DNA from: Schmidtea polychroa
Lineage: Eukaryota
Length of the DNA: 64,000 nt
Assembly: GCA_044892525.1 (NCBI GenBank)
Contig: CM097885.1
Span: 27,406,001-27,470,000 of the forward strand
Direction of reading: 5' to 3'
The position numbers were made by a program, and so were the translations under genes. Shown in pieces: positions 1,201 through 42,188 of this stretch. Numbering within the stretch: position 1 is the stretch's first letter; each line of letters begins with the position of its first letter. Under the pieces are notes generated by a model, which was given only the letters and a program-made list of their open reading frames with translations, was not told where the DNA came from and did no database searches.

Positions 1201-1567
1201 TCAAATTTTTTGTACAATAACCAAGCTAAACAATGTTTGGGTCAAAGGATTTTGAGACATAGTTTTATTATACACAATAGGTTTCCCCATTGTTTGTAGT
1301 TTTGATATCAACAAAGCCGGGTAATAAAAACCCATAGGATCGAACACGAATATATTACCAGGTTTCACATATATAGCTATCCAATGTTCTCCACCAAGAT
1401 GAGAAGATTGAGTATTGACGATTATCGCTTGATTATTGCTCAAATATGGAATTTTATCAAGAGGAAAAACTCCAACAAATTCATTTCCCAATATCTGTTT
1501 TCTGATTTTATTGACCTGAACAGAACTACTTAAATAAATCCAGAGTATAAAAAACAACTTACTCCAT
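1201..1567 (-). pseudogene. Adenain-like (adenovirus-type) cysteine protease of Polinton A
   Basis: Motifs GVFPLDKIP, IIVNT..GEHWIA, FDPMG. After QNPLTQT the expected catalytic CG is missing and the frame shifts. Probable start ATG 1567 with a short intron 1529-1562. Confidence 0.85.
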
Positions 1568-1594
1568 GACAACTTTTTGTGTTTCAATATACAT

Positions 1595-1984
1595 TTATAC
1601 CAACACAGTTCTATTTGCAGTAATTTGAACTTCATTTTCAAATACTCCATATATTATAACATGTACTGGTTCAGTAATAGCTTTTGCAAACTTTATATCC
1701 AGTTGTAAATTTCCATTTTGAGGTAATTGACTTTGATTTAAATCAAAATCAGGGGCTAAAACAAATGTAAAAAATGGATATTTGCTTTTAAAATCTTCTA
1801 GAGTTATTCCACAATTCAAATTTTTATCTAAATAACCCAGATTTCTAACAATACTCTGCATATATGTCGCACAGTAATTGTCATTCTCGAAATCTTGAAT
1901 ATATGTTTCTCTATAATCAGTATTTTTCGACAAAGTCAATGATGTAACACCAAAGTTTTTGAAAATTGAGCTGGACGCAGTATA
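1595..1984 (-). CDS. Major capsid protein, C-terminal part (split by nested element)
   Basis: YTASSSIFKNF..FFTFVLAPD..GNLQLDIKFAKA..VIIYGVFENEVQI; joins in frame to 7528-8364 once the insertion and one TSD copy are removed. Confidence 0.9.
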   Translation of the reverse strand, partial: YTASSSIFKNFGVTSLTLSKNTDYRETYIQDFENDNYCATYMQSIVRNLGYLDKNLNCGITLEDFKSKYPFFTFVLAPDFDLNQSQLPQNGNLQLDIKFAKAITEPVHVIIYGVFENEVQITANRTVLV

Positions 1985-2082
1985 AGTAGTAGATGGTATA
2001 GTCACCGCGAAAACAGGTCACCGACAGCACAAAGACATTTTTTACCCCACCCCCCCCCCCCCCGCCGGGAAAATTTTTTTTC

Positions 2083-2280
2083 AACTTGAGAACAAAGACA
2101 AATGACTCATCCGATGACTCATCAAGCATTCAAGGTCGACTTGAGAACAAAGACATATGACTCATCCGATGACTCATCAAGCATTCAAGGTCAACTTGAG
2201 AACAAAGACATATGACTCATCCAATGACTTATCAAGCATTCAAGTTCGACTTGAGAACAAAGACATATGACTCATCAATG
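2083..2280. repeat. ~56-bp tandem repeat in left TIR of element B (mirrored at ~7297-7436)
   Basis: Unit ACTTGAGAACAAAGACATATGACTCATCCGATGACTCATCAAGCATTCAAGGTC; about 3.5 copies on the left and 2.5 inverted copies on the right. Confidence 0.9.
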
Positions 2281-4844
2281 ATATATAATTATTATTATTT
2301 TTATTATTATTAATTTATCACAGAATAATAAATAATTTCCTTACTTTAATGAAGATTCTTACCATCTGAGAATAATATTGTTAATTTATCTCGGTGTTAT
2401 TAAAATTATCTTTCGACTTTACGCTTCTTACCATTTTAGAATAAGATTTTTTATCAAAATTTGACTGATTCAATTTGATGGAGTTATTGTTAATTCGTTT
2501 TATTATATATACTCTGAGTTTATCCGACAAGATATTTTCTCCCTCTATGGGTACTGTTCACAATTGGTACTGCTCGTAAGGGTACTGGTCGTAAAGGTAC
2601 TGGTGTGTTTTAATGATTTTATTTAGGCAAATTTTTGGTTATTATTTAGCATTAAATTCATTGGTAATTTTTAGAGTTAGCGGGATTTTACTAACATTAT
2701 TTCTATACAATTGAAATAATTATTTCTATTATTTGAAAGAATATTTAAAAATTTAAGGTTTTAGTGTTAATTCTAAGACAAATTTAATTAATTTCTTGAT
2801 AATTTGCTATATTTTATTGACTTGTTTTTAAATTTTAAATAAAAATTATTTTTAATGACAGTTAGGTTAATAATTAGAGTTTTTACAATAATCAAGTGAT
2901 TATTATTTAATTTTTATGTTGACTTTGTAATGATATTGACTAAATAATTTTTTCATATATTTTCTACGAATATTGATGAACTTTTAAATATTGAAAATCG
3001 AAAGTTGAAACCAGCTAATTTTATCATGATGATATATTTGAAATCTACTTGAAAATTATTGTAAAATATACTGAAATTTGTGATTTTGAAAGATATAATT
3101 GCTATATAATTGGCTGAATCGATGAAGAATTATGATCAATATTTCATCTCTAGTTAGGTATTTGATGGTAAGATTTTAATTAGATTTCTAGAAATTAAAT
3201 CGGTTGAATAAAGGGTACAATCTATTGAAGGAATATTGTTATCGGATGGATAAATCTTTCAATGATATTTTGCTAAATTACCTTTGTTAAATATTATTTT
3301 AAATGACTGAAAAAGAGAAAATTAACCAATATTCTTAAATTATTCACACAAAATATCCCTGTTTTGGTAAAAGTTACTCAAAATCCCTATTTAATAATGT
3401 TAAGCATGTATTTCTCACAAAGATATATTACACCCAATGATCATCTCATTAAATTAGAAAAGAATTGTAACCCTATATTTCTAACTAATAAGCACCTTAA
3501 TTGGTTAAATGATAACCAAATGATCATGTTTCTATTATGATTCCTTTTTGACTCGAAATTTACTCAGAAATTTACTCCAAATGATAAAGACTTTCTACCA
3601 AAATTATCAATGAATATATGTTGTTATTAATGATTATGCATTTCTCACTAAATTACCTAAGAATGTTTAACTAATATACATATGCCTTAATTAATATACC
3701 CTTGCGACATGTTGAATGTGACCAGTACCCTTACGACAAATACACATAGGGGGACAGAATATTTTGTCGGATAAATTCAGACTATATATATAAAAACTTA
3801 CAATATGCTATGGTTTTTATTGATTAATTTGTTGTATATTGCATTGATACATCAAAATGTTAGATAATATTTATAAATTAACTAAAAAATACACAAAAAT
3901 ACTATATTACCTACGAATTCTGTTATGTTTCTAGTTAAATAATTGGTTTATGTATCAACTATATAAAAATTGTTGTGAATCCAAGAATATTTTAATTAAA
4001 TGGTACGACCAAAAACATGGATTTCTAACTAAATAGGTTAATTTATCTATTTTACTTAAGAAATTCCTATATTTAAAATAACCTTTCACTAAATTGCCTA
4101 AATATTTGCTATATGGTATTGTTAAACAAAATAATAATGAAATTAAAAATAATAATATTATGTCAGGGTATGAAAAAATAATATAATTGTATGACTAATA
4201 AATTTGCAATACAAGTGCATAATTAACAAAGACTTTGCAATAAATGGGCATGATTAACAAAGACATTAGAAATATTATCTTTGCATTATGTCGAAGATGA
4301 TTATGGCAGTAATATCAGAGGAGAATGAATGGACAGAGAAAAGCATCATTATGAATATTTCATGAATTGTAAATTTCCATATATATAAATAGCACTATTT
4401 CAAAAATTAATACAAATATTAAAACAAAATGAATATGTTTTAATCAAAAAATATTACAATAAAACAATAAATTTATAAAAACATTTATTTACAAAACAAT
4501 AATAACCAATACTACTGCAACTTATAATGGCAGCTTTAAAATATTGGTTAGGGTTTCTTCTGCTTTTCCAACATCTTCATGGTTTTTGCGAAGATCTTTT
4601 TTTCCATTTTGATGAACTCACGGGTATATTTCATTCTGAATAATCTAAATAATATCATATATTATAAATACCAAACCATTCCATTCATCATATCACCAAC
4701 ATTTGGTAGTTGCGCCCAATATATTTAATTACCAAGATGATTTCATATTATTCAATGTTTGAAAATTTTCTACATTATAGTACCGTCATTATGGATGGTA
4801 ATAATTCATTTAACTTTGATATTGTATTGATTTGTATTGAGAAC

Positions 4845-5550
4845 TTACATGTATATAGTATGATATTCATTAATCAGTGTTGAACAGGCTTGACAATTGT
4901 GAACATTCTTCTCGTGACACTTAGAACAAACAATTACGTGACCACACGGTAAATACAAAACCGAAACTTGATTTTCTTTACAAATTGAACAAGTTAAATA
5001 CCTTTTCTTAACATCGTTCAGTTTTTCCGTTAGCTTATTTTCAATCAAGTCGGCTTTTGCTATCCATTCATAAATCAATCTACTATATCCCGGTTTCAAC
5101 CTTAAATACATGCAACTCCAAAAGTATTCATTCAGTGAATCGTTGTTTACCACTGTTTTTTCTAAATACATTAAATAACTAGATAACTTCAAAATGCATT
5201 TATCATAATTAAATAAATCAATCAAATATTCAATAGAGGAATGTTTGAAAATTTTGAAAATATTTATGATTTGCTTATCACTGTAAGTATCATGATTATT
5301 TATAAAATCTTCAACTGTGTTGTTGAAAAATTTCAATGAACGCTTATCTTCGGAATAGGTTGGACTTAATTTTTCCTTATTTCTAGTAGGATTTCCTTGC
5401 TATAAATGACATATATATAAAATATTGACAAAATAATAAAGTTACCAAATGTGTTTTGTGATTTACACATTCGTATTCAACAGTGTTACTTGTAGAAATC
5501 ATCAGTAATAAATAAATTTCTTAATAATTAAATTACTTTTGTTTTTTACA
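4845..5550 (-). CDS. C-terminal C3HC4 RING protein of IAP/RNF34 type (probably spliced at the 5' end)
   Basis: CSICKENQVSVLYLPCGHVIVCSKC..CQAC..IYM at the very C-terminus matches the IAP-type RING pattern. Frame is open upstream of the 5336 TTG to an AG acceptor near 5400. No intact BIR domain seen; 5' end approximate. Confidence 0.75.
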
Positions 5551-5786
5551 TTTATAACGATTGAGATAGCCAATCAAATTAGAGTTTTCAAAATGTAGAA
5601 ATTGTAACCATGGTTGAACCTTCAAATGTCTAAGTAATATCATATTGTATAACAATAATAATAAGCATGACTAGTACCCTTGCAACCTGTTGAGTGTGAG
5701 CAGTACCCATAGGGGGACAAAATATTTTGTCGGATAAACTCAGAGTATATAGATTAATACTAATAATAATAAAGTAATAATAATGT

Positions 5787-5820
<34 letters not shown>

Positions 5821-5859
5821 TTGAAAATAATTTTGAAAATGATATAAATAATAATAAGA

Positions 5860-6130
5860 ATTTTGAAGAAAATAATCATGAAAATATTGAAAATCGTGAA
5901 AATTATGAAAATGTTAAAAATCATGAAAATATAGAAAATGATGAAAATGTTCCTGAAAATGATGAAAATGTTGAAAATGATGAAAACGTTAAAAATTATG
6001 GAAATGTTCCTGAAAATAATCATCAAATATTGAAAATCGTAAATTGGTGCAGAAATTAAGTTTTATGAATATTTAAGTAAATAATGATAATGAAACTTCT
6101 AAAATAAAATAATAATTAGAATTTTGCAAA

Positions 6131-6161
<31 letters not shown>

Positions 6162-6420
6162 AATATTGATAAAAACTTTGAAAATAATTCTTTGAAAATA
6201 ATACTTTGAAAAATATTTGATGAATAGTTCCTGAAATAATCATGAAAATGTTGAAAATCGTGAAAATATTGAAAATGTAGAAAATTATTAAAATATTCAT
6301 GCAAATGATGAAAATGTTGAAAATCATGAAATTGACGTAGAAATTAAGTTTTATGAATATTTAAGTAAATAATAATAATGAAACTTCTAAAATAAAATAA
6401 TAGTTAGAATTTTGCAAATA
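5860..6420. repeat. Degenerate GAAAATGATGAAAATG-type minisatellite (related block at ~32080-32450)
   Basis: Repeated 9/18-bp units visible directly; a ~290-bp segment is also duplicated (6025-6150 vs 6315-6440). Confidence 0.75.
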
Positions 6421-6986
6421 ATAATAAAAATAATAATAATAATAAATAATAATAATAATATTTATGCAAAGCATGTGCAATAATTATGTCTTTGTTAAAT
6501 AAGTCAACTTTAGCATCAAAATAAGTTTTAAAATATATTTAAATTTTAAAATACCGCAACGTAATATATTTTTGTCCTGCCCCTTCATTGATTTAAGTTG
6601 GTCGGAATTTAATAATAATTATATTATACCCTTTGAGACATGTTGAATGTGAGTAGTACTCTTTGACCATTACCCATATGAGCAATACCCATAGGGGGAC
6701 AGAATATCTTGTCGGATAGACTAGGAGTATAAATGATAATAATATTCCCCGCGCGCATAATACTTTGAACTTGTATTTCAAAATACTTTGAAAATATTAA
6801 TAATAATAAGATGAAGAACTTTCAAAATAACTGTAAAAATGTTAGTTTAAAATAATAATAATAGTAAAGAAATATTGAAAAATATTGAAAATTATTAAAA
6901 TATTCATGCAAATGATAAAAATGATAAAAATGTTGAAAATCATTAAATTGCCATAGAATTTAAGTTTCATGAATAATTGCCAATAA

Positions 6987-7077
<91 letters not shown>

Positions 7078-7527
7078 GTCTTGGAAAAATGTTAATAACT
7101 TTGCCGATATTAAAGATGTTGATGACAACAATAGCTCATTCGAAAGGGCTTGCACTAAGCTTCAAAAAAAGCTATTGATCGATAAAATAAGTTGATGGAA
7201 ACGATAACTTTTGGCAGGCCAAATAGTAGGTCACCGCGAGCACAAAGACATTAGAAATAATAATATTTTTAAAAATAATAATAATTATATATCATTGATG
7301 AGTCATATGTCTTTGTTCTCAAGTTGACCTTGAATGCTTGATGAGTCATCGGATGAGTCATATGTCTTTGTTCTCAAGTCGACCTTGAATGCTTGATGAG
7401 TCATCGGATGAGTCATTTGTCTTTGTTCTCAAGTTGAAAAAAAAATTTTCCCGGCGGGGGGGGGTGGGGGTAAAAAATGTCTTTGTGCTGGCGGTGACCT
7501 GTTTTCGCGGTGACCATACCATCTACT

Positions 7528-8364
7528 AGTATATGATCCATTATATTGTGCTTCACTTTGAAATGTTATCAGAATAAAATTAGGCATTCTTCTGTCACCA
7601 AATATTTGTTCTTTATAGAATGATGAAGCACCTTTAGCAATAGCAAATTGTACAATTTCCTTTGTTTTTAATGGATAAATTGCATGTTTTGAATTAAGAC
7701 CTAATTGATGACCTACTAATACTGAGGGGTCTACTCGAACTCTTCTCACCAATAATTTTGCATCAACTAATTGACATATTGGTGTAGTAGTTGCACTAGT
7801 AAGAGATAATGCAGAATCAGACCTTTTCAGTCTAATATGTACATTAACTCCCGGTAGTAAATATTTCGGTTGATCCATAAAATCAAGTTGTAATGATGAG
7901 CACATGGTGAAAACCTTTGAGCCTTTTACCCACTTTTTTCTTTCATCATCACTGCCATAACCCATAGGAGTAAGACATGTATTTTTAGTATCGGAATTGT
8001 AATTTAAAATAGTTTCTATTAATGCCTTGTGAATGAATGTATTATTTCCGCCCTCAATCTTGATATTATTAAATCCCAACACTGCATCTTTAAAAAGAGT
8101 ATGAAACAGGAAATTGTTCGGTATTACATCTGCATTGGCATCCAAAACCTTTCTATCTTTATCTACAACCTTAATCTGAACAGTCAATAAAGTATCGTTC
8201 AAATCTAGATATTCGGTTTGCGAACCATTAATATAAAACTCGATATCATTTCTACTATCGGTAATTGAATTCGTAGGAAAAACTTCCTCAAATGCCCCAA
8301 ATTCTATTACAGCTTGGGGCGACGGTCTATCAAATATACATAATTCAGATTTACCACAAATCAT
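7528..8364 (-). CDS. Major capsid protein (double jelly-roll), N-terminal part
   Basis: MICGKSELCIF..IEFYING..YLDLNDTLL..NNFLFHTLF..QPKYLLPGVNVHIRLKRS, typical of Polinton MCP. Confidence 0.9.
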
Positions 8365-8732
8365 TTTGCAAATATAGTTCCATGTCCTTTCATTCGTTTG
8401 TTTATACGTGATATTCCATGTCTTTTACGTTTTGGAGCATGAGCTGGAGCTGGAGCTGGAGCTGGTTTTTGAAACATACCTGCAACCCCGGGTAAAACTT
8501 TCCCTAATTCTGCTAAAGCATTTGTTTTTAGAGATGGTAGTATTTTCTGTTCATTCATAATAACATCTTTTGCAGTTTTCATACCAAAACTACCAATACG
8601 TTTAAGAATAGGCAGGGCAAATCTACCAATTGTTCTCAACCATCCTGATCCGTACTGTTTACCAATAAATTATGGTAATTCACCACCAGATTGGCTACCA
8701 CTATACATACTAATAATATCAGAATTAGCCAT
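8361..8732 (-). pseudogene. Small basic virion core/membrane-active protein with adenain-type cleavage motifs
   Basis: MANSDIISMYSGSQSGGELP*FIGKQYGSGWLRTIGRFALPILKRIG..MKGHG: QxGxG motifs, amphipathic helix and one in-frame stop near 8670. Lies between penton and MCP. Confidence 0.6.
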
Positions 8733-9792
8733 TTATTTTACGAAAATGTAATGTCAAATGAGTTTTTGAACCTTTTGGAAATTCGATTAATTGACCAGAA
8801 TCATCTCTTATATTTATTTCTATATTGTTTATACAAGATGTTGAAACAGGTAAATACATGGGATTTTCTACATTGATTTGTACAACTTCATCTTGATCAT
8901 GTTTTTCAATCCATATAGATTTCATTAAAGGAACACTAGAATCGCCAACAATAACTGGTTCCACGATATTACTGTAAATGAACATTTTCTGATGATGTTT
9001 AAGGATTTTCGGTTTGTTTGTTCCTTCACAAATTTGTTCATTTTGTGTACATACTGGTTTAGTCAATCCTAATGTTTTTGTCAAATTTGAGTCAAATTTA
9101 ACTTGACTAAGATTAGAATTTATACTAAATCTAAATACTTTATCTTTTTGAAGCTCGAAAACTGTTAAAATCTCACTACAATTGTCAGCTAAATAAGTTT
9201 GTAATTGTTTGAGGTCTGAAATATATAAATTATCTTTAAAAGTATATGCATGCTCAGTTATTTCAAAGTATGATAGCTTAAATTTGAATTCCACTAAATT
9301 ATTAGTTTTTGGAAGTGTAGAGAGATTTATTTTGACTGTATCATTAAATACATTACGTAAATCAGTAAATCTAAGACGTTTAGCATCAGCCATTGTAGAA
9401 AATAAAATTTCGAACGGCTTATTCAAGCAATTCATGTATAAATATTGACCATCTTCATAAATTATAGGTTTCCTTGATTTCGATGAACTCGTCAAGTTAT
9501 AACTATCTTTATCAATAAGAACATTAATATATTCCGTTACTGCTACTTTCTTATTATATTCAATAACGGATTTGCTATAGATTGGGAATAAATTGTATAC
9601 AAATGTAAAATCCAACAGAGCAACTTCCCAGTCATTATCCAAATAGATGGGGTTTTGGAGTTCGATGATGAATTTGCTTGCTTGATTGTCTGGATGAATT
9701 AATGGACAACTATTGCTCGGCAAAATAGTATAAAAATTCACTTTATTAGGTCTTTTGCTGATATCCATGACGAGTTTTGATAACCATGCCAT
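8725..9792 (-). CDS. Minor capsid protein (penton)
   Basis: FYTILPSNS..PDNQASKF..L..PIYL..DWEVAL and C-terminal MFIYSNIVEPVIVGDS..PLM..YLPV..IEINIRD..G..LTLHFRK; true start may be ATG 9769. Confidence 0.85.
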   Translation of the reverse strand: MAWLSKLVMDISKRPNKVNFYTILPSNSCPLIHPDNQASKFIIELQNPIYLDNDWEVALLDFTFVYNLFPIYSKSVIEYNKKVAVTEYINVLIDKDSYNLTSSSKSRKPIIYEDGQYLYMNCLNKPFEILFSTMADAKRLRFTDLRNVFNDTVKINLSTLPKTNNLVEFKFKLSYFEITEHAYTFKDNLYISDLKQLQTYLADNCSEILTVFELQKDKVFRFSINSNLSQVKFDSNLTKTLGLTKPVCTQNEQICEGTNKPKILKHHQKMFIYSNIVEPVIVGDSSVPLMKSIWIEKHDQDEVVQINVENPMYLPVSTSCINNIEINIRDDSGQLIEFPKGSKTHLTLHFRKING

Positions 9793-10353
9793 TTGACATA
9801 GTATTGTTTATCCTTACCGACCTTTTTAGTTTTCAATATTTTTTGAATTCTAAATACTTTTGGGGGAGGAATGACTTGTAATTCCTGCTCATAAAATTTC
9901 CCTTGTACAATATTATTATCATTGTCTTTGATTCTGTTTAGTATTTATTTTTGAAATTACAAAGACTTCATCACTCCAATTTGTATCAAAATTTTTAATA
10001 AATGGTGATGCACTAATTTTACTAATTCTAACATGGTCACCGACTTTATATTTAGGTTTTGCAATTTTTACAGATTTCTTAGAAGTCAATGATGTTTTTG
10101 ATGTAATATCAACCGGTCTCAATCCATTCAGTCCTCGATGTGATGAATGATTATAACTTGTTATTATTTTCGGTAAAGCATTTACCCATTTTTTATTACC
10201 TTGATGCACGAACAATTTCTTTAATCTATCTCTCAATGTTCGATTAAATCTTTCAACATGGGCAGCTTTGTATTGAGAATGTACCGAGTAGTGATTTATT
10301 TTCAGTTTATCGAGGATTTGCTTAACTTTGCTATTGTAGAATTCTTTACCTAA

Positions 10354-10412
<59 letters not shown>

Positions 10413-10800
10413 CTAAATCTGTTTGCAAGTTATTAGGATGTCCATCTTTAAATAAAATATTATTTGCCTTGGACATTTCTTCTGCAGATTTTGCCTTGAC
10501 TGGTATTGCTCGTGCAAACCTGCTGTATACATTAATACATGTTAAAATATATTTATTCCCATTGTTAATTTTTGAATAAGGTATCATCTCCATCAAATCC
10601 ATTTGCCATAAATCGTCAATACCAAATGTTTTATACGCTCTTGTTGGAAATCTTTTCCGCATTGGTTTGTTCAAACTGTACGCAAGCTGATCTGATAACC
10701 ACTTCTGGGTTTCTTTTTTCGAATTCGGAACTCTTTTGTTTAATTTTGCCACTCCACCAAAACCGGCTTCGTCTTCTGGGTTCGTCCAAATCTTCTCCAT
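9755..10800 (-). pseudogene. Polinton retroviral-like (rve) integrase with C-terminal chromodomain
   Basis: LWQMDL, YILTCINVYSRFA, QTDLG/KEF, VERFNRTL, GDHVRIS. Frameshift near 9925, then GKFYEQELQ and chromo-like QYYVKWHGY..SWI. 63-nt GT-AG (ATT)n intron at 10350-10412. Confidence 0.9.
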
Positions 10801-10861
10801 TACAACAAGAAGATTTAAAATTAAATTTAATGTCGGGCAATGAAGGATTAGCACCCATTGT

Positions 10862-11389
10862 TTATGATTGATTTCCTACAACTCCACCTAATAATGATAA
10901 TGCCAGAGGTATCAATGCACCAATAAATCCACCTTGTTGTTTATATATAATTTTCCTCATTTGCTTACGATTTTTATTATTTACTAAAGATAATAAAGGT
11001 TTCCTATGTTTGCTCAATAAATGCTTTTTTGATTTACTGATTTTAATTTTGCCTTTGACTACTTTAAATATAATATTGAGTAAATCATCGACAACAAAGT
11101 TTGGGAATGATTGCAATATATTCATTCTTTTCATACTCGGAGCCTTTAACAATGCATTAAAAAATGGAAAACTGCGATGATTTTTAGCTACTTTTACTTT
11201 CTTAGTGGTTTTACTTTTAGGTTTAGGTTTAGGATTTTTCGAAATAAGATTCATTGCAGAGAAATTTTCAGTTACAAGTTTTTTAGATGGTGTATAACTA
11301 GTTGTTGGTGGAACTTTTGGAACTTTAATACTCTTTCTAATACTTTTTCTTAATTTCCTAATATTTTTCACCCTTGCTTTTAGAAACAT
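10862..11389 (-). CDS. Basic core-like protein with C-terminal QQGG/FIGALIPLALSLLGG motif
   Basis: Lys-rich ORF ending in an adenain-type cleavage motif and hydrophobic helix; conserved position next to the ATPase in Polintons. Confidence 0.65.
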   Translation of the reverse strand: MFLKARVKNIRKLRKSIRKSIKVPKVPPTTSYTPSKKLVTENFSAMNLISKNPKPKPKSKTTKKVKVAKNHRSFPFFNALLKAPSMKRMNILQSFPNFVVDDLLNIIFKVVKGKIKISKSKKHLLSKHRKPLLSLVNNKNRKQMRKIIYKQQGGFIGALIPLALSLLGGVVGNQS

Positions 11390-11407: not shown

Positions 11408-12035
11408 TCAACTTTGTTTATAAACCATGGCACCTTTTGGGTTGAAAATATCTGTTTTTACACGTAAATCATCGGGACATTGTTGTGTGAAATCAAGAAA
11501 TATATATCCATGAGGTATTTTTGTAGCATCTTGAAATGCACTGATAAGAAAATTACGATTGTTAGGGTATGCTTGACGTGCAAGAAAATCAATGACAGTT
11601 GCATCTCTAGGATTCTTGAAAATAACTAAATATTTATACATTTAAATTACGTGTTCGATGTGCCCCACCTTGATGAAATAGATTTTGTGTTATGAAAATA
11701 ACTGTTACACCGACATGTCTGCTAATCTTTGTAAATAAATTATTAAAATCTTTTTCTTTATTAGCTTTTTGATACAAATCATCGATAATAATGACATCAC
11801 CTTTCTTTAATCGGCTGGACCAGTTTTTATCGAATCCCTTTACTATTTTCATGTTTTTTAATTTACAGAAACTTGATTGAGTTAATCCATGTTCTTCATC
11901 AGCACCCCTATGCCAATAAATCCTGTTGAATTTTGATTTGAATAAATTTGATTTTAGTAATTTACAAACAAATAATGTTTTTCCACTACCCCTCGGACCA
12001 ACGATTTGGTATACTGCATCATTTCTTAATTCCAT
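11408..12035 (-). pseudogene. FtsK/A32-type DNA packaging ATPase (frameshifted near 11640)
   Basis: Walker A GPRGSGKT, Walker B VIIIDD, ISRH, FITQNLF; second frame YLVIFKNPRD..LARQ..PHGYIFLD. Confidence 0.92.
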
Positions 12036-12138
12036 TTCAAAAATTTTATAAATATATGTGTATTTGTTTATATTGGATGATTTAATGAACTCGTGCTCAA
12101 TTTGTATATAAAGACTAATTTACATAAATGATTTAATA

Positions 12139-12573
12139 ATGTTAGCAAATATAAATTATCGAGGAAATTTTGATGTATCGAATATGATCCCACCAGGGAA
12201 ACCCCAGCAAATTATCGATAGAAGCGGGAAATATCCGATAATATTTTTCAAGACTGGTAAATGCAGAATCATGGGATGTAAGAAACCTTTGGATATTAAT
12301 AAATTACAATATCGAATAAATAATATTATAATCCAATCAATTACCGTTACTATGGATATAGGACATAGTATCAATCTATATAACATGTCGAAAAAATGTG
12401 ATTGTATGTTTGAACCGGAATTGTTTCCGGCACTAAGACTATTAAAATATAACCCTATATGTGTCAACGTGTTTGCTAGTGGAAAGGTTGTCATGTTGGG
12501 GTTGAGAAATTTGGAGTATTGAGAATTTGTTGACAATGTTCGAAATGAGATAATTTCATTGGTCGATTTCTAA
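12139..12573 (+). CDS. TATA-binding-protein-like gene of Polinton A (premature TGA at 12520-12522)
   Basis: Two TBP half-repeats: IIFFKTGKCRIMG and FEPELFPAL..VNVFASGKVVMLG. Reading through the TGA adds a terminal helix EFVDNVRNEIISLVDF. Confidence 0.8.
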
Positions 12574-12645: not shown

Positions 12646-13062
12646 ATGTACAAAATTCCGAGCGCCGCGAATCTGATGAAAGATATTGACGATTATGGTA
12701 AATTTAAAATTTTTATTTTGACATTTTTTATATTTATTATTTTAGAAAAATATTTAGAAGTCATGATCAATAGGATAAAATATTATTATCCTCAAATTGC
12801 TGAAGTAATCAAGGATCGGGAACCGGAAATCATCCCTGATTTGATTTTTTATTCAACTCAAATTAGAATCATGGAGGTATTCCATCAATTCTTATGGGAT
12901 ATCAAGACCAACAGGACCATAAAGCAAATGGAACCGGAGTATCAATGCATCATGGGATGCTCATGTTGTGCCGATCGATATCGACGATATGTCGAATGGG
13001 AGTTAGTGAAAACTCTGAGAAGGTTTCACTACTCCCGGATGGTTGATTTAGGATATCAATAA
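12646..13062 (+). CDS. Hypothetical protein (probable 48-nt intron 12698-12745)
   Basis: ATG-started ORF with a Cys cluster CIMGCSCC; in-frame AT-rich GT..AG segment; AATAAA at the stop. Confidence 0.55.
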   Translation: MYKIPSAANLMKDIDDYGKFKIFILTFFIFIILEKYLEVMINRIKYYYPQIAEVIKDREPEIIPDLIFYSTQIRIMEVFHQFLWDIKTNRTIKQMEPEYQCIMGCSCCADRYRRYVEWELVKTLRRFHYSRMVDLGYQ

Positions 13063-13409: not shown

Positions 13410-13820
13410 ATGACCAAGAAAATTTCATGCACCGAAAAACCTAAAGAAATGGTACAACCAGTTCAAATGTTCCACAACTACAAAATGTATTTTTTAAAAG
13501 AAGAAATCAATATGAAATTGGTTGCACCAGTCAAGCTAATTCCAACTAAATTTCAATTCTTATCCGGCACGCTTTCAATGATTGATGTCAAAACTATTGA
13601 TGATGTTTTTAAACGGATAGATTCGAATCTATCATGTAATCAACATGCCTGGTTCAACAATAGATATGCAAGATTTTATGATGCTTTTGATGAAATCGCT
13701 TTCAAAGAAAATGAAAATTGGTATATAACAATTGCAATCCAGGGATATAAAGTTGATAATAATGATGTATATTCTCCTATTTGGAAAATTATGTCTGCTA
13801 GACTATCACAAATATTTTAA
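13410..13820 (+). CDS. Hypothetical Polinton protein (possibly OB-fold ssDNA-binding-like)
   Basis: 136-aa ATG ORF with upstream TATAAAA (13369) and downstream AATAAA; the fold is a guess from the beta-rich C-terminus. Confidence 0.5.
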   Translation: MTKKISCTEKPKEMVQPVQMFHNYKMYFLKEEINMKLVAPVKLIPTKFQFLSGTLSMIDVKTIDDVFKRIDSNLSCNQHAWFNNRYARFYDAFDEIAFKENENWYITIAIQGYKVDNNDVYSPIWKIMSARLSQIF

Positions 13821-14409: not shown

Positions 14410-14924
14410 TTATTTAAAAAAACGGCATAAAACATACAAAATAGCAACACCTGTTGCAAGTTTTATATAATTTTTAAATTTCATTTTCTGTTGATCTATT
14501 TCCTTCGCATTTCTGGCGAGTTGATTCAGTACGCCCCATCCGCCATTAGCTTCAATCCATGGTTGAAACTTTGACTTGATTATCTAGAAAATAAATATTA
14601 ATAAAATATAGATTATAAAAGTATTACTTCTTGAGACCACTGATAATAATGTTCCGAGTCCCATAAACTTTTTTCTATTATTATCTTCATATAAGCGAAC
14701 CCTACTAGTATTCGGGTCCACTTCATCTCATCGTCACATAGGCAGTTAAAAATCCTATGAAAATAGAAATTTTTCGTTTCCAGGCACTCGGAATTGATCA
14801 TATCCTGATAATCGATATAATTTCCTTCGATTATCTTTTCGGTCCGGTCCACTAGGAAACTCAGGCTTTCCAAAATGTTCTTGTTTATAATTTCGCTTAA
14901 AAGATTTTCCATAAAATGAGACAT
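14410..14924 (-). CDS. Bcl-2 family protein (2 exons) of Polinton A
   Basis: Exon 1 has BH1-like LCDDEMKWTRILVGFAY. A phase-0 GT-AG intron spans 14584-14627. Exon 2 reads IIKSKFQPWIEANGGW (BH2) and ends in a tail anchor LATGVAILYVLCRFFK*. Confidence 0.85.
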
Positions 14925-15029: not shown

Positions 15030-15622
15030 ATGAAAACTATATTCATATTGTTAATTATTATAACGAGTGTGTGCTCACACAATACAACAATAACAGTGGA
15101 GTCTTTTAATAAATCAATATGTGTTTGTCCGAATACAGCCAAGTTGATGGATATTTTATATATTCTCGATAAACCAAAATGGTCAAAGCATCCAGGAAAA
15201 AGAATATCTCAAAGATTGGAGAATTTAGAAAACAGCTATGAACTATCATTTGCATATATACAAAATATAAAAATATAAAAATATTTTGTCGGATAGACTC
15301 GGAGTATATAGATTAATACTAATAATAATAATAATAATCATTTGCATATATACAAAATATAAAAATTAAATTGATTGATCATATTGAAGTTTTCAATAAC
15401 TCTATTGTTGAAAATAAGAAGAATATGAAAATTATTGATAAGAAGCATGATTATTTGTTAAAAAAGATCGAATTATTATTAAGAGAAATTCAAACAATCA
15501 AAGGATCAATAGAATATCTGAAAATCAATTCAACGTTACCAATTTCAAACAATATTGCTGCGAATAATAGTTCATCAATATTTAGTTTACCTTTGTTAAT
15601 TTTAAATTATTTTATTGTTTAA
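15030..15622 (+). pseudogene. Signal-peptide, coiled-coil protein with hydrophobic C-terminus, broken by a small insertion/duplication
   Basis: MKTIFILLIIITSVCS signal. CATTTGCATATATACAAAATATAAAAA is duplicated (~15248 and ~15339) around a fragment of the recurring module; removing it fuses ORFs 15030 and 15371. Confidence 0.6.
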
Positions 15623-15789: not shown

Positions 15790-15939
15790 TCTTTCGAAAT
15801 AATAATCACAATAACAGGATATATGGCTCATTCGAAAGGTCTTGGATTGAGCCTTAAAATGAGCTATCGATGAATAATTTTCGTTGGCGGGAACTCTGAA
15901 AAAAGTAATAATAAAATAATAATATTTTTAAAAATAATA

Positions 15940-16589
15940 ATATGACCTTGATGACTCATCGCGATGACTCATATGACCTTGGGAATGACCTTGGATGAGT
16001 CATGCAACTTTGAAAACGACCTTGATGAGTCATAGGATGACTCAGGTGACCTTGAAATGACCTCGAAAATTTTTTGACCTTGATGAGTCATAGTATGAGT
16101 CATATGTCCTTGAGAATGACCTTGGATGAGTCATATGACCTTGAGAATGGCATTGGATGAGTCGTGGTCTTTGTTTAAATGACCTTGAAAATTTTTATGA
16201 CTCATCGGGTGAGTCATATGACCTTGATGAGCCACAGGATGAGTCATACGACCTTGAGAATGACCTTGGGTGAGTCATGGTCTTTGTTTAAATGACCTTG
16301 ATAATTTCTATGACTCATCGGATGAGTCATACGACCTTGATGAGCCATAGGATGAGTCATATGACCTTGAAAATGACCTTGATGAGTCATGGTCTTTGTT
16401 CAAATGACCTTGAAATTTTTTTGTCCTCGATGAGTCATATTATGAGTCATATGACTTTGATGAGTCATAGAATGAGTCATATGTCTTTGTTTAAAATTTG
16501 ACCTTGAAAAAATTTTTTAAAAAAAATTTTTACGACGGGGGCTACTGTGCTAGCGGTGCCCTGTGCCAGCGGTGCCCAATCCATCTACT
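15940..16589. repeat. Right TIR/subterminal array of Polinton A, rich in TGAGTCA/TGACTCA and TGACCTTG
   Basis: Dozens of short interleaved repeats, then AAAATTTT, two GCGGTGCCC units and CCATCTACT. Confidence 0.85.
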
Positions 16590-16899
16590 ATCGCGGTGAC
16601 CATTCTTACTGTGGCGTACTCTCGTCCTGTAGGATTCTGAATTCTATTTACTCTCGTCCTGTGGAATTTTGAATTCAATTTTTGGCAGTTCGTCTGAATA
16701 TAATTTTTGGGTTTATTTATTGCATTGATTTTTAACGATTTTTATTTATTGTTATGGAACTTGGTAGGGCTATGCCTATAAGGAGGTAGCTCATCTTCCC
16801 CGCGAGATTATTCTAACCGAGTATACAACGTAGAGTGGTTCTAATGACGATTTGATGGGTATTATCTACCAAAGTTAGTGTTGTACGATATCCGGGACA

Positions 16900-25163: not shown

Positions 25164-25227
25164 ATTATTATTATTATTATTAATATTATTATTATAATTA
25201 TTATTAATATTATTATTATTATTATTA

Positions 25228-25359
<132 letters not shown>

Positions 25360-25435
25360 GATTTACAAAATTATCATTAGTTTTCGTAAAAATGATAATA
25401 AATTAAGACATTAAAAGATTAAAAGATATATTATA

Positions 25436-28400
25436 TCACAGATCAATTCGATAATAATACGTCATATTAATATCATTGTCATCATTGGCATCATTGAAAT
25501 CTGGACTTCGACCTCCGAATAGTGGACGAATTTCTGAAATTACTTGATCAACATCTAAGGCATCTATTCCTAAATAATGTCCAAATGCGAGACTTGAATT
25601 TTTCCCCACCCATAATCGTTTGTCATCGTTGTTTGACAATGCAATCTTGGTATTTTTAAACGTAAGAAGCTGGTGGTTACGCGTCCCTATTCTAGTTTGT
25701 GGCACCGTATATACTACGCTGTTGTTGTAGCAGTCTAAATAAGACTGGTGCCCTATCTCAGTATTACCAAGCTGAACTCACTTAGCCCTAAGTGTTGCCT
25801 TATCCCCTAACAAACTATAACACTTGGGTCTTAAGAAAACCCACTCCTTATAACCAAGCCCTTTACTTTCGTCCTTAAATTTTCCTATCACAGAATCCAA
25901 ACTCTTTGAATACAAAGGATGAGCAGGATCATAATTGCTAGTATCTAAAAGATTATCACGAATCATTGCCGGCAAAAGAGTGTCAAGCTTACAGTGCTTT
26001 ATCTCTAAGAAAAAGGAGTCAGTGTCACCGGCAACGATACTTGTATCACAGTTAAACTCTAAACGATATTTAGACAATTCTATATACTGTAACTGGTACA
26101 TCCTCAGTTTAGACAAATTTAACACTGTTTGACCAATATAGCTAGGTCTGTCTAAACATATATATTCTTTATCCAGATGAGCCGCAATCAGATCATCAGC
26201 AATTTTGATAGATTTTCTGAAAGTAGGTTTTGATGCATATACAATCATCTTTTCAGCTGAATTGCATAGCCTCAAATTCATCCGCTTTTTCAGATTCTCC
26301 ACCGATTTCCCATACAGACTATTATTAAATAATTTATATAAATCCCTATATAATTCACATGTAGAATTGGCTCGTAAATTAGTGTTTTTGTCTATGTACG
26401 ATTTAAAAATGGGTGCATGCTTAAATTTAATTGCCCTATGTACATTTTTAATAATAGCCCCCAATTCTATATACAACTTGAGAAGTCGCCAATGAAGAAC
26501 ATGGTTCTTCTTCGGCCAATGCGTGAGCATCAGCTTCTCAACTTTCGAATCTGGCGGGTACATCTTTTCCGGAGCAATCGGAAAATCATTCATAAAATCA
26601 TGCAAACACTGAGGGATATCAATATCCACTTCCATAGTATACCCATATGGAAGATTTTCAATATCCTCATTCATACATTCATTCAAGACAGAATCAAGAT
26701 CATCATACACCCATTCAAAGTCAGCATAAGGCAGATTTTGGCTTAAGGCCCATCCATACAAGTTGTTAATATCTATGTACAAGAGTTCTGTGTCTTCAGA
26801 ACTAGCAACATAATGTTTGTTAACAAATGTTAACCCACCCCGTATCCCTCCTTCATAGAAATTAAACATTTCCATGTCCTGCAGAAGTTCAATGGGTTCC
26901 GTTAATGTCATAAGCGCTGAGGCCCATGACATACCGGGAATGCCATAGAAATTAAGAGGCTCAAGACCATTGTAAGCAATGGCCTTTGCAGGGAATGGTG
27001 TAAAATAGTCTGCGAGGAGAAATACATCTAATTTGAGGTAAGTTAATATGTAATCTAACATGTTGTTGCAATTTTGCTGAGTCCAAATAACTTGGGCTAA
27101 TGCATACTCATCATTAGACACAGAATCCCAGATAGGAGGTAGTTCAAGAGTCGATTCCAGAACCTCAAGCGATGTAGCAAAGTCATAAGGAAAGATACCT
27201 TTGGCTCGAACAATTGCATCATCAAAAACAGAAGAAGTTAAAGGCAGATCGGAAAGAGTCTTAACCGCTTTTGCTAAAGATGAATTAACAAACTGCATGC
27301 TGTCAATAAAACGAACAGGCAATTTGTTAATATTCGCGATGAGGGAGATGAATTTCTCGGTAGTAGTCGGAATAATATTTAATTCCCAAAAAGGAAAATT
27401 ATTCAAACCATACTTCAAAATATGATGGAGATCATAACCCCTCAAATTATGAAAGACAACTGGTAACTGTCTCTGAATTCGCCGAGAAACATTACATTTC
27501 CTACAAGCAGCACCAAGATACTTGCCTGAGAAGTGGCAATGGTCCCTAACTCTATCTTTAATGAATTTTTTTACATAGATAACAGGTTCTGGATTCTCGA
27601 AAGACACGTTCTTCAGTGAAAGACAAGGTTTGCATGGGCTTTTTCCCATTAATTTCGTAATATGGCAGGACAATTGTGACAGCAATTTCCTCTACCTTAC
27701 GCAAGAAAGACAACACACAATCATCACCAACAAACTCATAATAAAATCTGGTATTATTATAATTATTAATTAATAACATGCCTGCTGTTATTGGCATATG
27801 TTTTTGGTGGTGGGTGATGTCTTCAGGTAAGATTGCCTCAAAATCGACATATATCACGAATGGCGGGGTGATTGTCTTGGAGTAATCTTTAAAAATTAAA
27901 TTTTTATCTTTAGGGAGCGTGTACAAAGTAGTACCTATCTGGTTCTTACTGCATAGTGCAACATGTGCGTTAAATGCTTTTTCATGTCGAAAACCATTGA
28001 GACAATGAAGACACCAGTTCACTCTAATTTTAACACTGCATTCACTGTTTGGGTGTGAGTTCATTAATTTTTGTAAGTTAAAAACTGCGGTATAATGGAA
28101 ATTATCACCGTCTTCCAATAAAAGTAAGTATATGGGTTCACCACCTATAACCTTAGATCGGTGAATAATATATAATTGAGGATGATGTGGAATATAATTA
28201 TCGTCAATTACATTTTCAGAAGGCTTAGCTGGGTTCTTTTTATAAATTAAAACATTTATTGATAAATTTAAATCACTATTTTTCCTTTCAAATTTAGGGA
28301 TATCACATAATTTCATTGGACAATCAGAAATGGGGTCAAAATTTAACTCGTCAAGATAATTTTCATAGGAACTAACTCTATTTCTATTTATATGTACTAC

Positions 28401-29195
28401 ATTACGTTTTAAAAGGGCTAAAATACTATATATAAAGCACATATCGTCAGTGTTTTTGACGTTTACTATTGCTTTTTTAGAATTTAAAGCCGCTGGGGTG
28501 GGGATATAACCATGTCCAGCTAACCTATTCATATGGGTTAATTTTGTTAATATAAAATCTATCTCTTTGATTTTAACCACTCGCCATCCGCTACCCAAAT
28601 ATGTGAATTTTTCTATTTTTTCATTTAACTTAGTGATACTCTCTACTAGAAAATTATCTGAAAAAATCTCTGCATTATTAGAGAAAAAATTATCTCTAAT
28701 TTCCCCATCTTTTTCGAATTGGATTAAAACGGTGAATTGTATTTTAACTGTGCTCATACCGTTTATTTCGGTAATTAATTTATTTGTCATCTTATTTGTA
28801 ATGAAAACTTGTACCAAGTTATCTTTTTCCATATTAAATCGTAAATTCTTTCTAGACCCTTTAAAATCTATCTCAATTTCAGGTTCATCGTCAATATCGA
28901 TCGAACCACCTATTTGATTATATATTGAATCACCAGTTGTATTAATTTTAACAATTTTAGAGGGAACACCAGACCCAAAACTAACAGCAGGCTGTTTATT
29001 ATTATTTAGAATATTATTTATTTTAGTATTTAGATTCGTATTTAGATTAGTATTATTTACATTATTATTTACATGTTTTGTATTATAATTATTATTTATA
29101 GGTTTTGTATTTATATGTTTTGTGGTATTATGTGTTGATTGTTGTATTTTAATAAACAATTTCTTTTTATTTAAAGAGAACCGATTTAAATGTGA
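25436..29195 (-). pseudogene. pPolB: Protein-primed DNA polymerase B, left-arm copy (5'-truncated)
   Basis: YVDFEA (ExoI), FHNLRGYD, YLKLDV, YIDINNLYG (motif A), KLFNNSLYGK (B), GDTDS (C). Frameshift near 27570 and nonsense at 25778. Confidence 0.95.
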
Positions 29196-37986: not shown

Positions 37987-40900
37987 AAATCACATTTAAA
38001 TCGGTTCTCTTTAAATAAAAAGAAATTGTTTATTAAAATACAACAATCAACACATAATACCACAAAACATATAAATACAAAACCTATAAATAATAATTAT
38101 AATACAAAACATGTAAATAATAATGTAAATAATACTAATCTAAATACGAATCTAAATACTTAAATAAATAATATTCTAAATAATAATAAACAGCCTGCTG
38201 TTAGTTTTGGGTCTGGTGTTCCCTCTAAAATTGTTAAAATTAATACAACTGGTGATTCATTATATAATCAAATAGGTGGTTCGATCGATATTGACGATGA
38301 ACCTGAAATTGAGATAGATTTTAAAGGGTCTAGAAAGAATTTACGATTTAATATGGAAAAAGATAACTTGGTACAAGTTTTCATTACAAATAAGATGACA
38401 AATAAATTAATTACCGAAATAAACGGTATGAGCACAGTTAAAATACAATTCACCGTTTTAATCCAATTCGAAAAAGATGGGGAAATTAGAGATAATTTTT
38501 TCTCTAATAATGCAGAGATTTTTTCAGATAATTTTCTAGTAGAGAGTATCACTAAGTTAAATGAAAAAATAGAAAAATTCACATATTTGGGTAGCGGATG
38601 GCGAGTGGTTAAAATCAAAGAGATAGATTTTATATTAACAAAATTAACCCATATGAATAGGTTAGCTGGACATGGTTATATCCCCACCCCAGCGGCTTTA
38701 AATTCTAAAAAAGCAATAGTAAACGTCAAAAACACTGACGATATGTGCTTTATATATAGTATTTTAGCCCTTTTAAAACGTAATGTAGTACATATAAATA
38801 GAAATAGAGTTAGTTCCTATGAAAATTATCTTGACGAGTTAAATTTTGACCCCATTTCTGATTGTCCAATGAAATTATGTGATATCCCTAAATTTGAAAG
38901 GAAAAATAGTGATTTAAATTTATCAATAAATGTTTTAATTTATAAAAAGAACCCAGCTAAGCCTTCTGAAAATGTAATTGACGATAATTATATTCCACAT
39001 CATCCTCAATTATATATTATTCACCGATCTAAGGTTATAGGTGGTGAACCCATATACTTACTTTTATTGGAAGACGGTGATAATTTCCATTATACCGCAG
39101 TTTTTAACTTACAAAAATTAATGAACTCACACCCAAACAGTGAATGCAGTGTTAAAATTAGAGTGAACTGGTGTCTTCATTGTCTCAATGGTTTTCGACA
39201 TGAAAAAGCATTTAACGCACATGTTGCACTATGCAGTAAGAACCAGATAGGTACTACTTTGTACACGCTCCCTAAAGATAAAAATTTAATTTTTAAAGAT
39301 TACTCCAAGACAATCATCCCGCCATTCGTGATATATGTCGATTTTGAGGCAATCTTACCTGAAGACATCACCCACCACCAAAAACATATGCCAATAACAG
39401 CAGGCATGTTATTAATTAATAATTATAATAATACCAGATTTTATTATGAGTTTGTTGGTGATGATTGTGTGTTGTCTTTCTTGCGTAAGGTAGAGGAAAT
39501 TGCTGTCACAATTGTCCTGCCATATTACGAAATTAATGGGAAAAAGCCCATGCAAACCTTGTCTTTCACTGAAGAACGTGTCTTTCGAGAATCCAGAACC
39601 TGTTATCTATGTAAAAAAATTCATTAAAGATAGAGTTAGGGACCATTGCCACTTCTCAGGCAAGTATCTTGGTGCTGCTTGTAGGAAATGTAATGTTTCT
39701 CGGCGAATTCAGAGACAGTTACCAGTTGTCTTTCATAATTTGAGGGGTTATGATCTCCATCATATTTTGAAGTATGGTTTGAATAATTTTCCTTTTTGGG
39801 AATTAAATATTATTCCGACTACTACCGAGAAATTCATCTCCCTCATCGCGAATATTAACAAATTGCCTGTTCGTTTTATTGACAGCATGCAGTTTGTTAA
39901 TTCATCTTTAGCAAAAGCGGTTAAGACTCTTTCCGATCTGCCTTTAACTTCTTCTGTTTTTGATGATGCAATTGTTCGAGCCAAAGGTATCTTTCCTTAT
40001 GACTTTGCTACATCGCTTGAGGTTCTGGAATCGACTCTTGAACTACCTCCTATCTGGGATTCTGTGTCTAATGATGAGTATGCATTAGCCCAAGTTATTT
40101 GGACTCAGCAAAATTGCAACAACATGTTAGATTACATATTAACTTACCTCAAATTAGATGTATTTCTCCTCGCAGACTATTTTACACCATTCCCTGCAAA
40201 GGCCATTGCTTACAATGGTCTTGAGCCTCTTAATTTCTATGGCATTCCCGGTATGTCATGGGCCTCAGCGCTTATGACATTAACGGAACCCATTGAACTT
40301 CTGCAGGACATGGAAATGTTTAATTTCTATGAAGGAGGGATACGGGGTGGGTTAACATTTGTTAACAAACATTATGTTGCTAGTTCTGAAGACACAGAAC
40401 TCTTGTACATAGATATTAACAACTTGTATGGATGGGCCTTAAGCCAAAATCTGCCTTATGCTGACTTTGAATGGGTGTATGATGATCTTGATTCTGTCTT
40501 GAATGAATGTATGAATGAGGATATTGAAAATCTTCCATATGGGTATACTATGGAAGTGGATATTGATATCCCTCAGTGTTTGCATGATTTTATGAATGAT
40601 TTTCCGATTGCTCCGGAAAAGATGTACCCGCCAGATTCGAAAGTTGAGAAGCTGATGCTCACGCATTGGCCGAAGAAGAACCATGTTCTTCATTGGCGAC
40701 TTCTCAAGTTGTATATAGAATTGGGGGCTATTATTAAAAATGTACATAGGGCAATTAAATTTAAGCATGCACCCATTTTTAAATCGTACATAGACAAAAA
40801 CACTAATTTACGAGCCAATTCTACATGTGAATTATATAGGGATTTATATAAATTATTTAATAATAGTCTGTATGGGAAATCGGTGGAGAATCTGAAAAAG

Positions 40901-41749: not shown

Positions 41750-41824
41750 TATAATATATCTTTTAATCTTTTAATGTCTTAATTTATTATCATTTTTACG
41801 TAAACTAATGATAATTTTGTAAAT

Positions 41825-42188
<364 letters not shown>

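Follow-up and report, generated by a model that had tools for sequence, protein, structure and literature searches.

A trimmed TATA-binding protein of Maverick elements with an altered DNA-contact face, and a promoter box that it may read before packaging and putative capsid genes

The locus considered here lies in a window of 64,000 nucleotides of Schmidtea polychroa (GenBank assembly GCA_044892525.1, contig CM097885.1, positions 27,406,001 to 27,470,000 of the forward strand), and the coordinates below are those of the window. The window holds a copy of a Maverick/Polinton element with four core genes of this group, namely an rve integrase, an A32-like ATPase, an adenain protease and a family-B DNA polymerase (PolB), the last of which lies to the left of the window (L181) and is also found in sister copies. 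The gene order is the same in ten sister copies: PolB, protease, putative major capsid gene, c3, c2, integrase, c6, c7 and ATPase follow each other on one strand, and after this block come the gene of a TATA-binding protein (TBP), c10, c12, a Bcl-2-like ORF and c14. The features of the window copy are the following.

1201..1650, minus strand: adenain-type protease (Pfam)
1985..7527, no strand: 5.5-kb nested element, inverted at its ends and with AGTATA as 6-bp target duplication, splitting the putative capsid gene
7525..8364, minus strand: 5' part of the putative major capsid gene, its 3' part at 1595-1987; without Pfam match
8725..9792, minus strand: c2, 355-aa ORF, putative minor capsid; without Pfam match
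9741..10800, minus strand: rve integrase with a frameshift close to the 3' end in the window copy; a sister copy has a chromodomain
10862..11389, minus strand: c7, basic 175-aa ORF, conserved in relatives, without Pfam family
11408..12035, minus strand: A32-like packaging ATPase, frameshifted near 11635 in the window copy
12139..12522, plus strand: mini-TBP gene, window copy of 127 aa with a premature TGA at 12520-12522 (145 aa in sister copies)
12523..12573, plus strand: remnant of the region coding for the C-terminal helix H2', 3' of the premature stop
12646..13062, plus strand: ORF c10, with CCAAT elements upstream and without YATAAACR
13410..13820, plus strand: ORF c12, weakly OB-fold/SSB-like, with CCAAT and a canonical TATA upstream; adjoins TBP in 21 of 80 relatives
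14613..14924, minus strand: Bcl-2-like ORF (weak, E 0.028), with CCAAT and a canonical TATA upstream
15030..15619, plus strand: ORF c14 with a hydrophobic N-terminus, broken in the window copy, with CCAAT and a canonical TATA upstream
15800..16595, no strand: right terminal region (approximate), with arrays of TGASTCA and TGACCTTG motifs

The ORF of about 407 aa is the candidate for the double-jelly-roll major capsid gene of this group, to judge from its size, its position and the usual make-up of such elements, and c2 is assumed on its position to be a minor capsid gene; a Pfam scan of the ~407-aa ORF gave no capsid match. In itself the window copy is an ordinary decayed insertion, with ATPase, integrase and c14 broken and the putative capsid gene split by the nested element. 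The nested element (1985-7527) is non-autonomous, has the ends AGTAGTAGATGG...CCATCTACT and carries a RING-finger ORF at 4845-5171. Terminal inversions are seen at this nested element, together with the 6-bp target duplication, and at the copies of a second family (family B, below).

In the frame that starts at 12139, both TBP half-repeat signatures lie in frame on the plus strand (FKTGKCRIMG at codons 38-47 and FEPELFPAL...VFASGKVVMLG at codons 91-121 of the window copy), as a preliminary description of this DNA had noticed, and the ORF matches the Pfam TBP family (PF00352) with an E-value of 1.2e-14 and 54.3 bits, the curated cut-off being 22.9. A search of the PDB sequences with the same ORF gives TBPs or TBP fusions as the top 35 of 39 matches. 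The gene is transcribed divergently from the ATPase (ATG at 12035 on the minus strand), again as described. The length of about 144 codons that had been given does not hold in the window, where the frame stops at the TGA 12520-12522 after 127 aa; past the stop it runs for 16 more codons up to the TAA at 12573, and near the N-terminus the window copy is one codon shorter than its sisters. The idea that this TGA is a sense codon in other copies can be ruled out, as all 19 of the 19 other loci examined have an uninterrupted TBP ORF of 145 codons without it. The stop-to-stop frame has 154 codons in 142 of 149 other scored matches and 136 in the window copy. Because the other copies have the intact longer frame, the TGA is a lesion of the window copy only; it takes away the last helix (H129-142 in the model described below), and the window copy is therefore likely dead.

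First-look searches of the same genome give 4048 protein-level and 1369 DNA-level candidate matches, which are not copy numbers, the best being 98-99% identical. In a word-based search 131 homologous proteins are found, mostly of 144-165 aa among the 120 listed, and 68 representatives have E-values below 1e-30. Polinton core genes are neighbours at 37 of 80 metagenome TBP loci, and at 25 of the 34 loci of at least 3 kb. The position of the TBP gene inside the element varies among the metagenome loci, and the gene often adjoins the ATPase or an SSB-like ORF. In keeping with selection on the protein, the dN/dS of the mini-TBP is 0.11-0.38 in 31 of 36 pairs; the other 5 are saturated and allow no estimate of dS. 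The mini-TBP has the TBP fold and comes from a Maverick/Polinton family of high copy number, and the Pfam match, the fold and the Polinton core neighbours in sister copies and metagenome relatives bear out the earlier view of a Polinton-encoded minimal TBP.

For the structure we use a model of a natural, intact 145-aa sister copy, predicted from an alignment of 115 sequences (pLDDT 96). The top Foldseek matches of the model are all TBPs (E 5e-9), and residues 1-145 of this predicted model align to residues 66-240 of yeast TBP with Z 13.2 and an rmsd of 2.5 Å over 144 residues, the first non-TBP row of the structural alignment having Z 6.6; the TBP fold that had been proposed from the signatures is thus found. 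The two-repeat saddle is present in the model, with an N-repeat that has no helix H1 and has H2 reduced to a 3-residue turn, and the gaps in the alignments agree. The whole protein of 145 aa is TBP core, with no added N-terminal or C-terminal domain. The EPELF stirrup is nearly invariant in the 115 rows: the glutamates E93 (equivalent to E186) and E95 (E188) are kept in 112 and 114 of them, and the stirrup residue L189 is also kept. According to passages of PMC7221094, E186 and E188 contact TFIIB, and a basic patch of H2 serves TFIIA, TAF1 and Mot1. The sequences thus point to a protein in which the basic N-lobe patch for TFIIA, TAF1 and Mot1 is lost and the TFIIB glutamates are retained. It is a member of the TBP family that is neither a canonical TBP nor a herpesvirus vTBP.

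The face that contacts the DNA is scored over 115 aligned rows at the 16 TBP/ORF24 contact positions of Table 1 in PMC12529657, the yeast numbering being set by the alignment to 1tbp and by PMC1636458. Seven of the 16 contacts (N69, L114, F116, F190, P191, F207 and V213) are kept or conservatively changed. The other nine are replaced, mostly near-invariantly: V71>N (107/110), F99>P (113/114), A101>Q/M, V122>R (114/115), T124>M (115/115), N159>S (112/115), V161>T (105/115), L205>N (114/115) and T215>L; in addition, I194>R is found in 113 of 115. V203>C is probably fixed in the altered-face TBPs too, where C109 may equal I202 or V203. The DNA-intercalating Phe residues, to which the preliminary description had drawn attention, are kept in part: F116, F190 and F207 are invariant, and the position of F99 is occupied by Pro (P23) in the N-repeat register given by MAFFT. 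The altered-specificity mutant TBPm3 has its changes at I194, V203 and L205 (PMC1636458, in part). The DNA face is the most conserved part of the mini-TBP, and from these replacements we infer a saddle that is polar rather than hydrophobic.

Like cellular TBP (PF00352; yeast 1ytb, human 1cdw), the mini-TBP has the two-repeat saddle, N69, F116, F190, P191, F207 and the stirrup residues E186, E188 and L189. Unlike cellular TBP, it is about 30 residues shorter, is missing H1, retains just a turn of H2, has Pro for F99 (by alignment) and has 9 of the 16 listed DNA contacts changed, and a branch with SH-aLRT 99-100 parts it from all host paralogues. These features bear on the suggestion, made when the gene was first noticed, of a decoy for host TBP partners, or more broadly of a host shut-off in which the mini-TBP sequesters TFIIB or occupies host TATA boxes. 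A near-invariant EPELF stirrup would suit such a role, as would the company of other likely host-modulating ORFs in the element (the weak Bcl-2-like match), but to trap TFIIA, TAF1 or Mot1 the protein would have to possess the H2 patch that it has lost, and a pure TFIIB sponge has no need of an invariant new DNA face. With the N-lobe surface gone, the DNA face most conserved and the box described next left unexplained, we consider the decoy distinctly improbable.

We turn to the DNA upstream of the genes, where an 8-bp box, YATAAACR, precedes the gene starts of the block that ends with the ATPase. The promoter elements in the window are the following.

8399..8406, minus strand: TATAAACA box within the c3 coding sequence, some 41 nt upstream of the ATG of the putative major capsid gene
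8826..8833, minus strand: TATAAACA box before c3 (~120-aa ORF), within the c2 coding sequence
9805..9812, minus strand: GATAAACA variant box before c2 (motif scan)
10859..10866, minus strand: CATAAACA box before the integrase (motif scan)
10938..10945, minus strand: TATAAACA box before c6 (75-aa ORF), in the coding sequence of the preceding gene
11415..11422, minus strand: TATAAACA box before c7 (motif scan)
12065..12072, minus strand: TATAAACA box 37 nt before the ATPase ATG, also in 10 of 10 sister copies
12105..12113, plus strand: canonical TATA box TATATAAAG 34 nt before the TBP ATG, a probable host-type (early) promoter

The gene block of the window has 7 such sites on the coding strand and 0 on the opposite strand, with 1.65 expected, and 7 are reached in 1 of 300 simulations. 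There is one box per gene start in the block (6-7 boxes in sister copies), at 19 to 106 nt from the ATG; upstream of the protease gene of the window no box is found. The motif is not enriched window-wide (26 sites vs 22.6 expected), therefore the signal of the box is its position and strand. The boxes at 8399-8406, 8826-8833 and 10938-10945 are dual-coded, lying inside the coding sequence of the preceding gene.

The same motif is found in metagenome relatives when ATAAAC[AG] is scanned within 120 nt upstream of the genes of dereplicated loci, the starts of integrase, PolB and c12 being approximate. It stands before 23 of 23 ATPases (antisense 0, shuffle mean 1.2), with 15 of 24 sites at 31-37 nt, and before the putative capsid gene (10/10), c3 (6/6), c7 (6/8), c2 (6/8), the integrase (9/13) and the protease (3/5). 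Before the TBP gene it occurs in 2 of 57 cases (shuffle 2.4), before PolB in 0 of 3 and before c12 in 3 of 13. Without dereplication all 26 of 26 ATPases have the box, across TBPs down to 27% identity, and the pattern persists in all 12 clusters formed at 55% TBP identity. In an unbiased count ATAAAC[AG] also ranks first among the k-mers, and 60 of 63 sites are preceded by Y. Because the 80 metagenome loci were chosen by their TBP, absence of the box where TBP is absent is not demonstrable from them. The TBP genes themselves have a canonical TATA in 29 of 57 cases and an Inr-like TCAYW in 39 of 57, spaced by 30-32 nt in 20 of 33 pairs, and in the window c12, c13 and c14 have CCAAT and a canonical TATA upstream.

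The next question is which factor reads the box. That the reader belongs to the host, be it TBP itself, one of its paralogues or a forkhead protein, while the viral TBP is co-inherited for some other role, we hold to be unlikely. ATAAACA fits the forkhead consensus; the box, however, is strictly sense-oriented and clustered 31-37 nt before the ATPase starts, unlike an enhancer site. The host has a TBP family of at least five loci, three of them divergent (the divergent paralogues L215, L217 and L218 are intronless), and host TBP could read the box, since a crystal structure pairs the wild-type protein with a C(-25) variant of TATA (PDB 1qn3, by its title); yet C is disfavoured for TBP in the 3' half of TATA (PMC1636458, in part), and the same elements use a canonical TATA for their other genes. 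A host reader would, moreover, leave the near-invariant altered saddle unexplained. Two further points are in its favour: the independent contrasts are few, and a covariation with box position 1 failed. The candidate there was the P191 equivalent, which finds no support, as loci with C at position 1 still have it (Fisher p 0.09 per site and 0.29 per locus, not in the predicted direction); C at position 1 tracks the longer TBP forms, in a single clade-level contrast.

Two kinds of control bear on the pairing of box and altered TBP, amounting to about two independent contrasts, of which family B is very distant and L238 is a single 4.6-kb contig. Family B (L194-L211, L165-L170, L182) is a second high-copy Maverick family of the same genome with a PolB only 26-28% identical, an integrase with a phospholipase A2-like domain and a jelly-roll capsid, and six copies have inverted ends. 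In these six TIR-bounded copies two TBP profiles give nothing better than E 0.04, and of the 58 regions upstream of 11 genes none contains the box at a distance of at least 15 nt from the ATG. The other control comes from seven further loci (range L235-L241) that were found via the ATPase and not via TBP. An altered TBP is encoded at L235 and L236, where the box precedes 7 and 5 ORFs, respectively. L238 encodes at 2443-2976 (minus strand) a near-canonical, intronless TBP of 177 aa (E 9e-30 against yeast TBP, and grouping with the canonical TBPs in the tree), and it has TATAAAAG before the ATPase, AATAAAAG before the putative capsid gene and no ATAAACR on either strand. A Polinton with a canonical TBP thus has a canonical box before its ATPase, which again speaks against a host reader of YATAAACR. 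The L238 TBP is head-to-head with the putative capsid gene, a BIR-domain ORF is also present, and the contig suggests a second Polinton TBP type or a separate capture. Four of the seven loci, all partial contigs, show neither a TBP nor a box at the ATPase. The Polinton-like contigs L235-L241 lie in bacterial genome bins, most likely as eukaryotic contamination. IMG/VR scans with ATPase and capsid alignments found no TBP-less Polintons, and those with TBP gave 0 and 1 locus, the one being the canonical TBP of a large virus (L121). The proposal of a dedicated transcription factor for the virion module gains indirect support from a class-specific box that co-occurs with the altered TBP and is absent in two controls.

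Combining these lines of evidence, we give a probability of about 0.7 to the reading in which the window holds a broken copy of a conserved Maverick mini-TBP whose intact form would bind the YATAAACR box of the packaging and putative capsid genes, bringing host TFIIB and RNA polymerase II to them. Host Pol II would transcribe the TBP gene and the right-arm genes from ordinary TATA/Inr/CCAAT promoters; the mini-TBP would then recognise YATAAACR through its polar saddle, the C at position 7 being one that cellular TBP disfavours. The N-repeat, which is the most remodelled, may read the 3' half of the box, but because both repeats are altered the opposite orientation (YGTTTATR, read by the C-repeat) may apply instead. 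The retained EPELF stirrup would dock host TFIIB, which is proposed as the partner because no TFIIB or polymerase gene is detected in the element: a Pfam scan of its unspliced ORFs gave no TFIIB match, and a polymerase gene for its own transcription was not detected. With H1 and most of H2 lost, the basic N-lobe patch would be stripped, and host TBP regulators would not grip the mini-TBP. The outcome would be a one-protein late-gene switch that drives the packaging and capsid genes.

Virophages share the promoters of their helper viruses. One may accordingly ask whether box and TBP serve the transcription of a helper large DNA virus, or a bending of DNA in packaging or replication, and the dependence of virophages on giant viruses (literature abstracts) and the frequent place of TBP next to the ATPase or an SSB-like ORF would be in keeping with this. 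The boxes, however, are single before gene starts and not at termini, the TBP gene shows a Pol II-type TATA/Inr spacing, its position in the element varies, and the TFIIB glutamates are kept, where the TBPs of large viruses are reported as diverged (PMC7221094, in part), all of which makes a helper or non-transcriptional role highly improbable. A private TBP-box pair, if true, would therefore put the virion genes under the elements' own control, with no helper virus needed.

A close known parallel for recruitment of host Pol II through a private box is the vTBP of beta- and gamma-herpesviruses (KSHV ORF24, EBV BcRF1), which pairs with TATT late promoters (PMC7498053, in part). The likeness lies in a viral TBP, a polar saddle altered at V122, T124, V161 and L205, where KSHV ORF24 differs from TBP by polar residues (PMC12529657, in part), a non-canonical late box and the use of host Pol II. 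Like the vTBP late box, the YATAAACR box is restricted to packaging and putative structural genes (23/23 ATPase and 10/10 capsid vs 2/57 TBP) and may mark a late class. By analogy, the mini-TBP likely works as the herpesvirus vTBP does, with far fewer parts: ORF24, at 752 aa, contacts Pol II itself and depends on five further viral factors (PMC12529657 and PMC7498053), whereas the mini-TBP has 145 aa and lacks the Pol II-binding N-terminal domain and the C-terminal extension of the vTBPs. A section heading of PMC12529657 gives the ORF24 model as incompatible with TFIIB binding, while the mini-TBP keeps the TFIIB glutamates, and the structural match of BcRF1 to the mini-TBP model is weak (E 0.026). 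The TBP-like proteins of nucleocytoviruses are alike in being a virus-encoded TBP fold without the N-lobe regulatory signature, but their TFIIB site is reported as diverged, often alongside a TFIIB of their own (PMC7221094), whereas the mini-TBP has kept the glutamates; their identity to the mini-TBP model is 7-19% in BFVD structural matches, and the one large-virus TBP compared (L121) groups with the canonical TBPs in the tree.

A branch with SH-aLRT 99-100 separates all altered-face TBPs from the host paralogues (quick trees, midpoint root), and its length and strong support rule out a recent capture from the TBP genes of this host. In a smaller tree, also quick and midpoint-rooted, the short TBP forms make up a group (99) nested within longer ones in which H1 and H2 are still present, and we infer from this that the saddle was altered first and H1/H2 were trimmed later. 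Within the genome, some subfamilies have ATPases 96% identical with TBPs of 52-54%, and others the reverse (L148-L151 vs L133 and L003); the pair L003-L151 has a dS of 0.43 for the ATPase and 2.2 for TBP, and L003-L133 has 0.95 and 0.23. As the distances of TBP and ATPase disagree between subfamilies of one genome, an exchange of TBP alleles is suggested, with recombination at the ATPase/TBP border swapping them among elements with the same box. In the host genome at least 13 intronless TFIIB-like genes of ~301 aa lie in clusters (L230-L232, L234; C1:23.8-24.2 Mb and C3:38.2-39.1 Mb), with no intact element context around the cluster in the 4 stretches examined; together with the divergent TBP paralogues they form what appears to be an expanded host basal-transcription set.

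A 'TBP' label has been placed before on a Polinton-related element, in the legend of Fig. 5 of Starrett et al. (PMC8502044; bioRxiv 697771), for MELD viruses with adintovirus-like PolB from non-animal datasets. In the portion of PMC8502044 covered, the legend label comes without analysis, fold, promoter or distribution; the one supplement file covered has no mention of TBP or TATA. In the openly readable text covered, no paper analysing a Polinton TBP or the YATAAACR box is found. Within that coverage, the legend label is what is known in print. We put at somewhat better than even the wider view that a lineage of animal Mavericks has the smallest known two-stage viral transcription programme, in which a re-engineered TBP of ~145 aa, a private YATAAACR box and host TFIIB would form an orthogonal pair, the saddle having been altered before H1/H2 were shed, and other Polintons would use a near-canonical TBP with a canonical box. 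The TBP-box pair would offer a concrete mechanism for how animal Mavericks time their capsid genes, which a single small protein and a site of 8 bp suffice to test, and it would help to trace active Maverick lineages. If true, the mini-TBP would moreover count as a naturally occurring TBP of altered specificity, stripped to a core that shows which TBP surfaces Pol II initiation needs, and the pair possibly as an orthogonal promoter system.

Some observations on the remaining parts of the elements may be added. The model of c12 has a pLDDT of 89 and weak structural matches to the phage Enc34 SSB and to ASFV CP312R (OB-fold SSB-like, E 0.09); its best score in the ESM Atlas is 0.83, and searches of PDB sequences and PHROG gave no PDB match and no useful PHROG match. 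It is possibly a single-stranded-DNA-binding protein of the Maverick, and its candidacy as a partner of TBP finds no support from the ESM Atlas, PDB-sequence, PHROG or structural matches. The family B genes have an upstream signal of another kind in common, CATTTT-like and then AAA abutting the ATG (AAA-ATG in 46 of 58 regions), which resembles poxvirus late promoters, and a helper-dependent lifestyle of family B is possible. In the window, TGASTCA, with 20 sites in 15-17 kb, and TGACCTTG, with 15, are dense at 15800-16500 and also at about 2000-2400 and 7200-7500; they resemble AP-1 and NR5A/ERR sites, and the terminal repeat possibly holds an enhancer. A PolB fragment lies in a 4-kb, 99% identical inverted duplication (25186-29195 / 37990-41999) around a Gypsy-like insertion.
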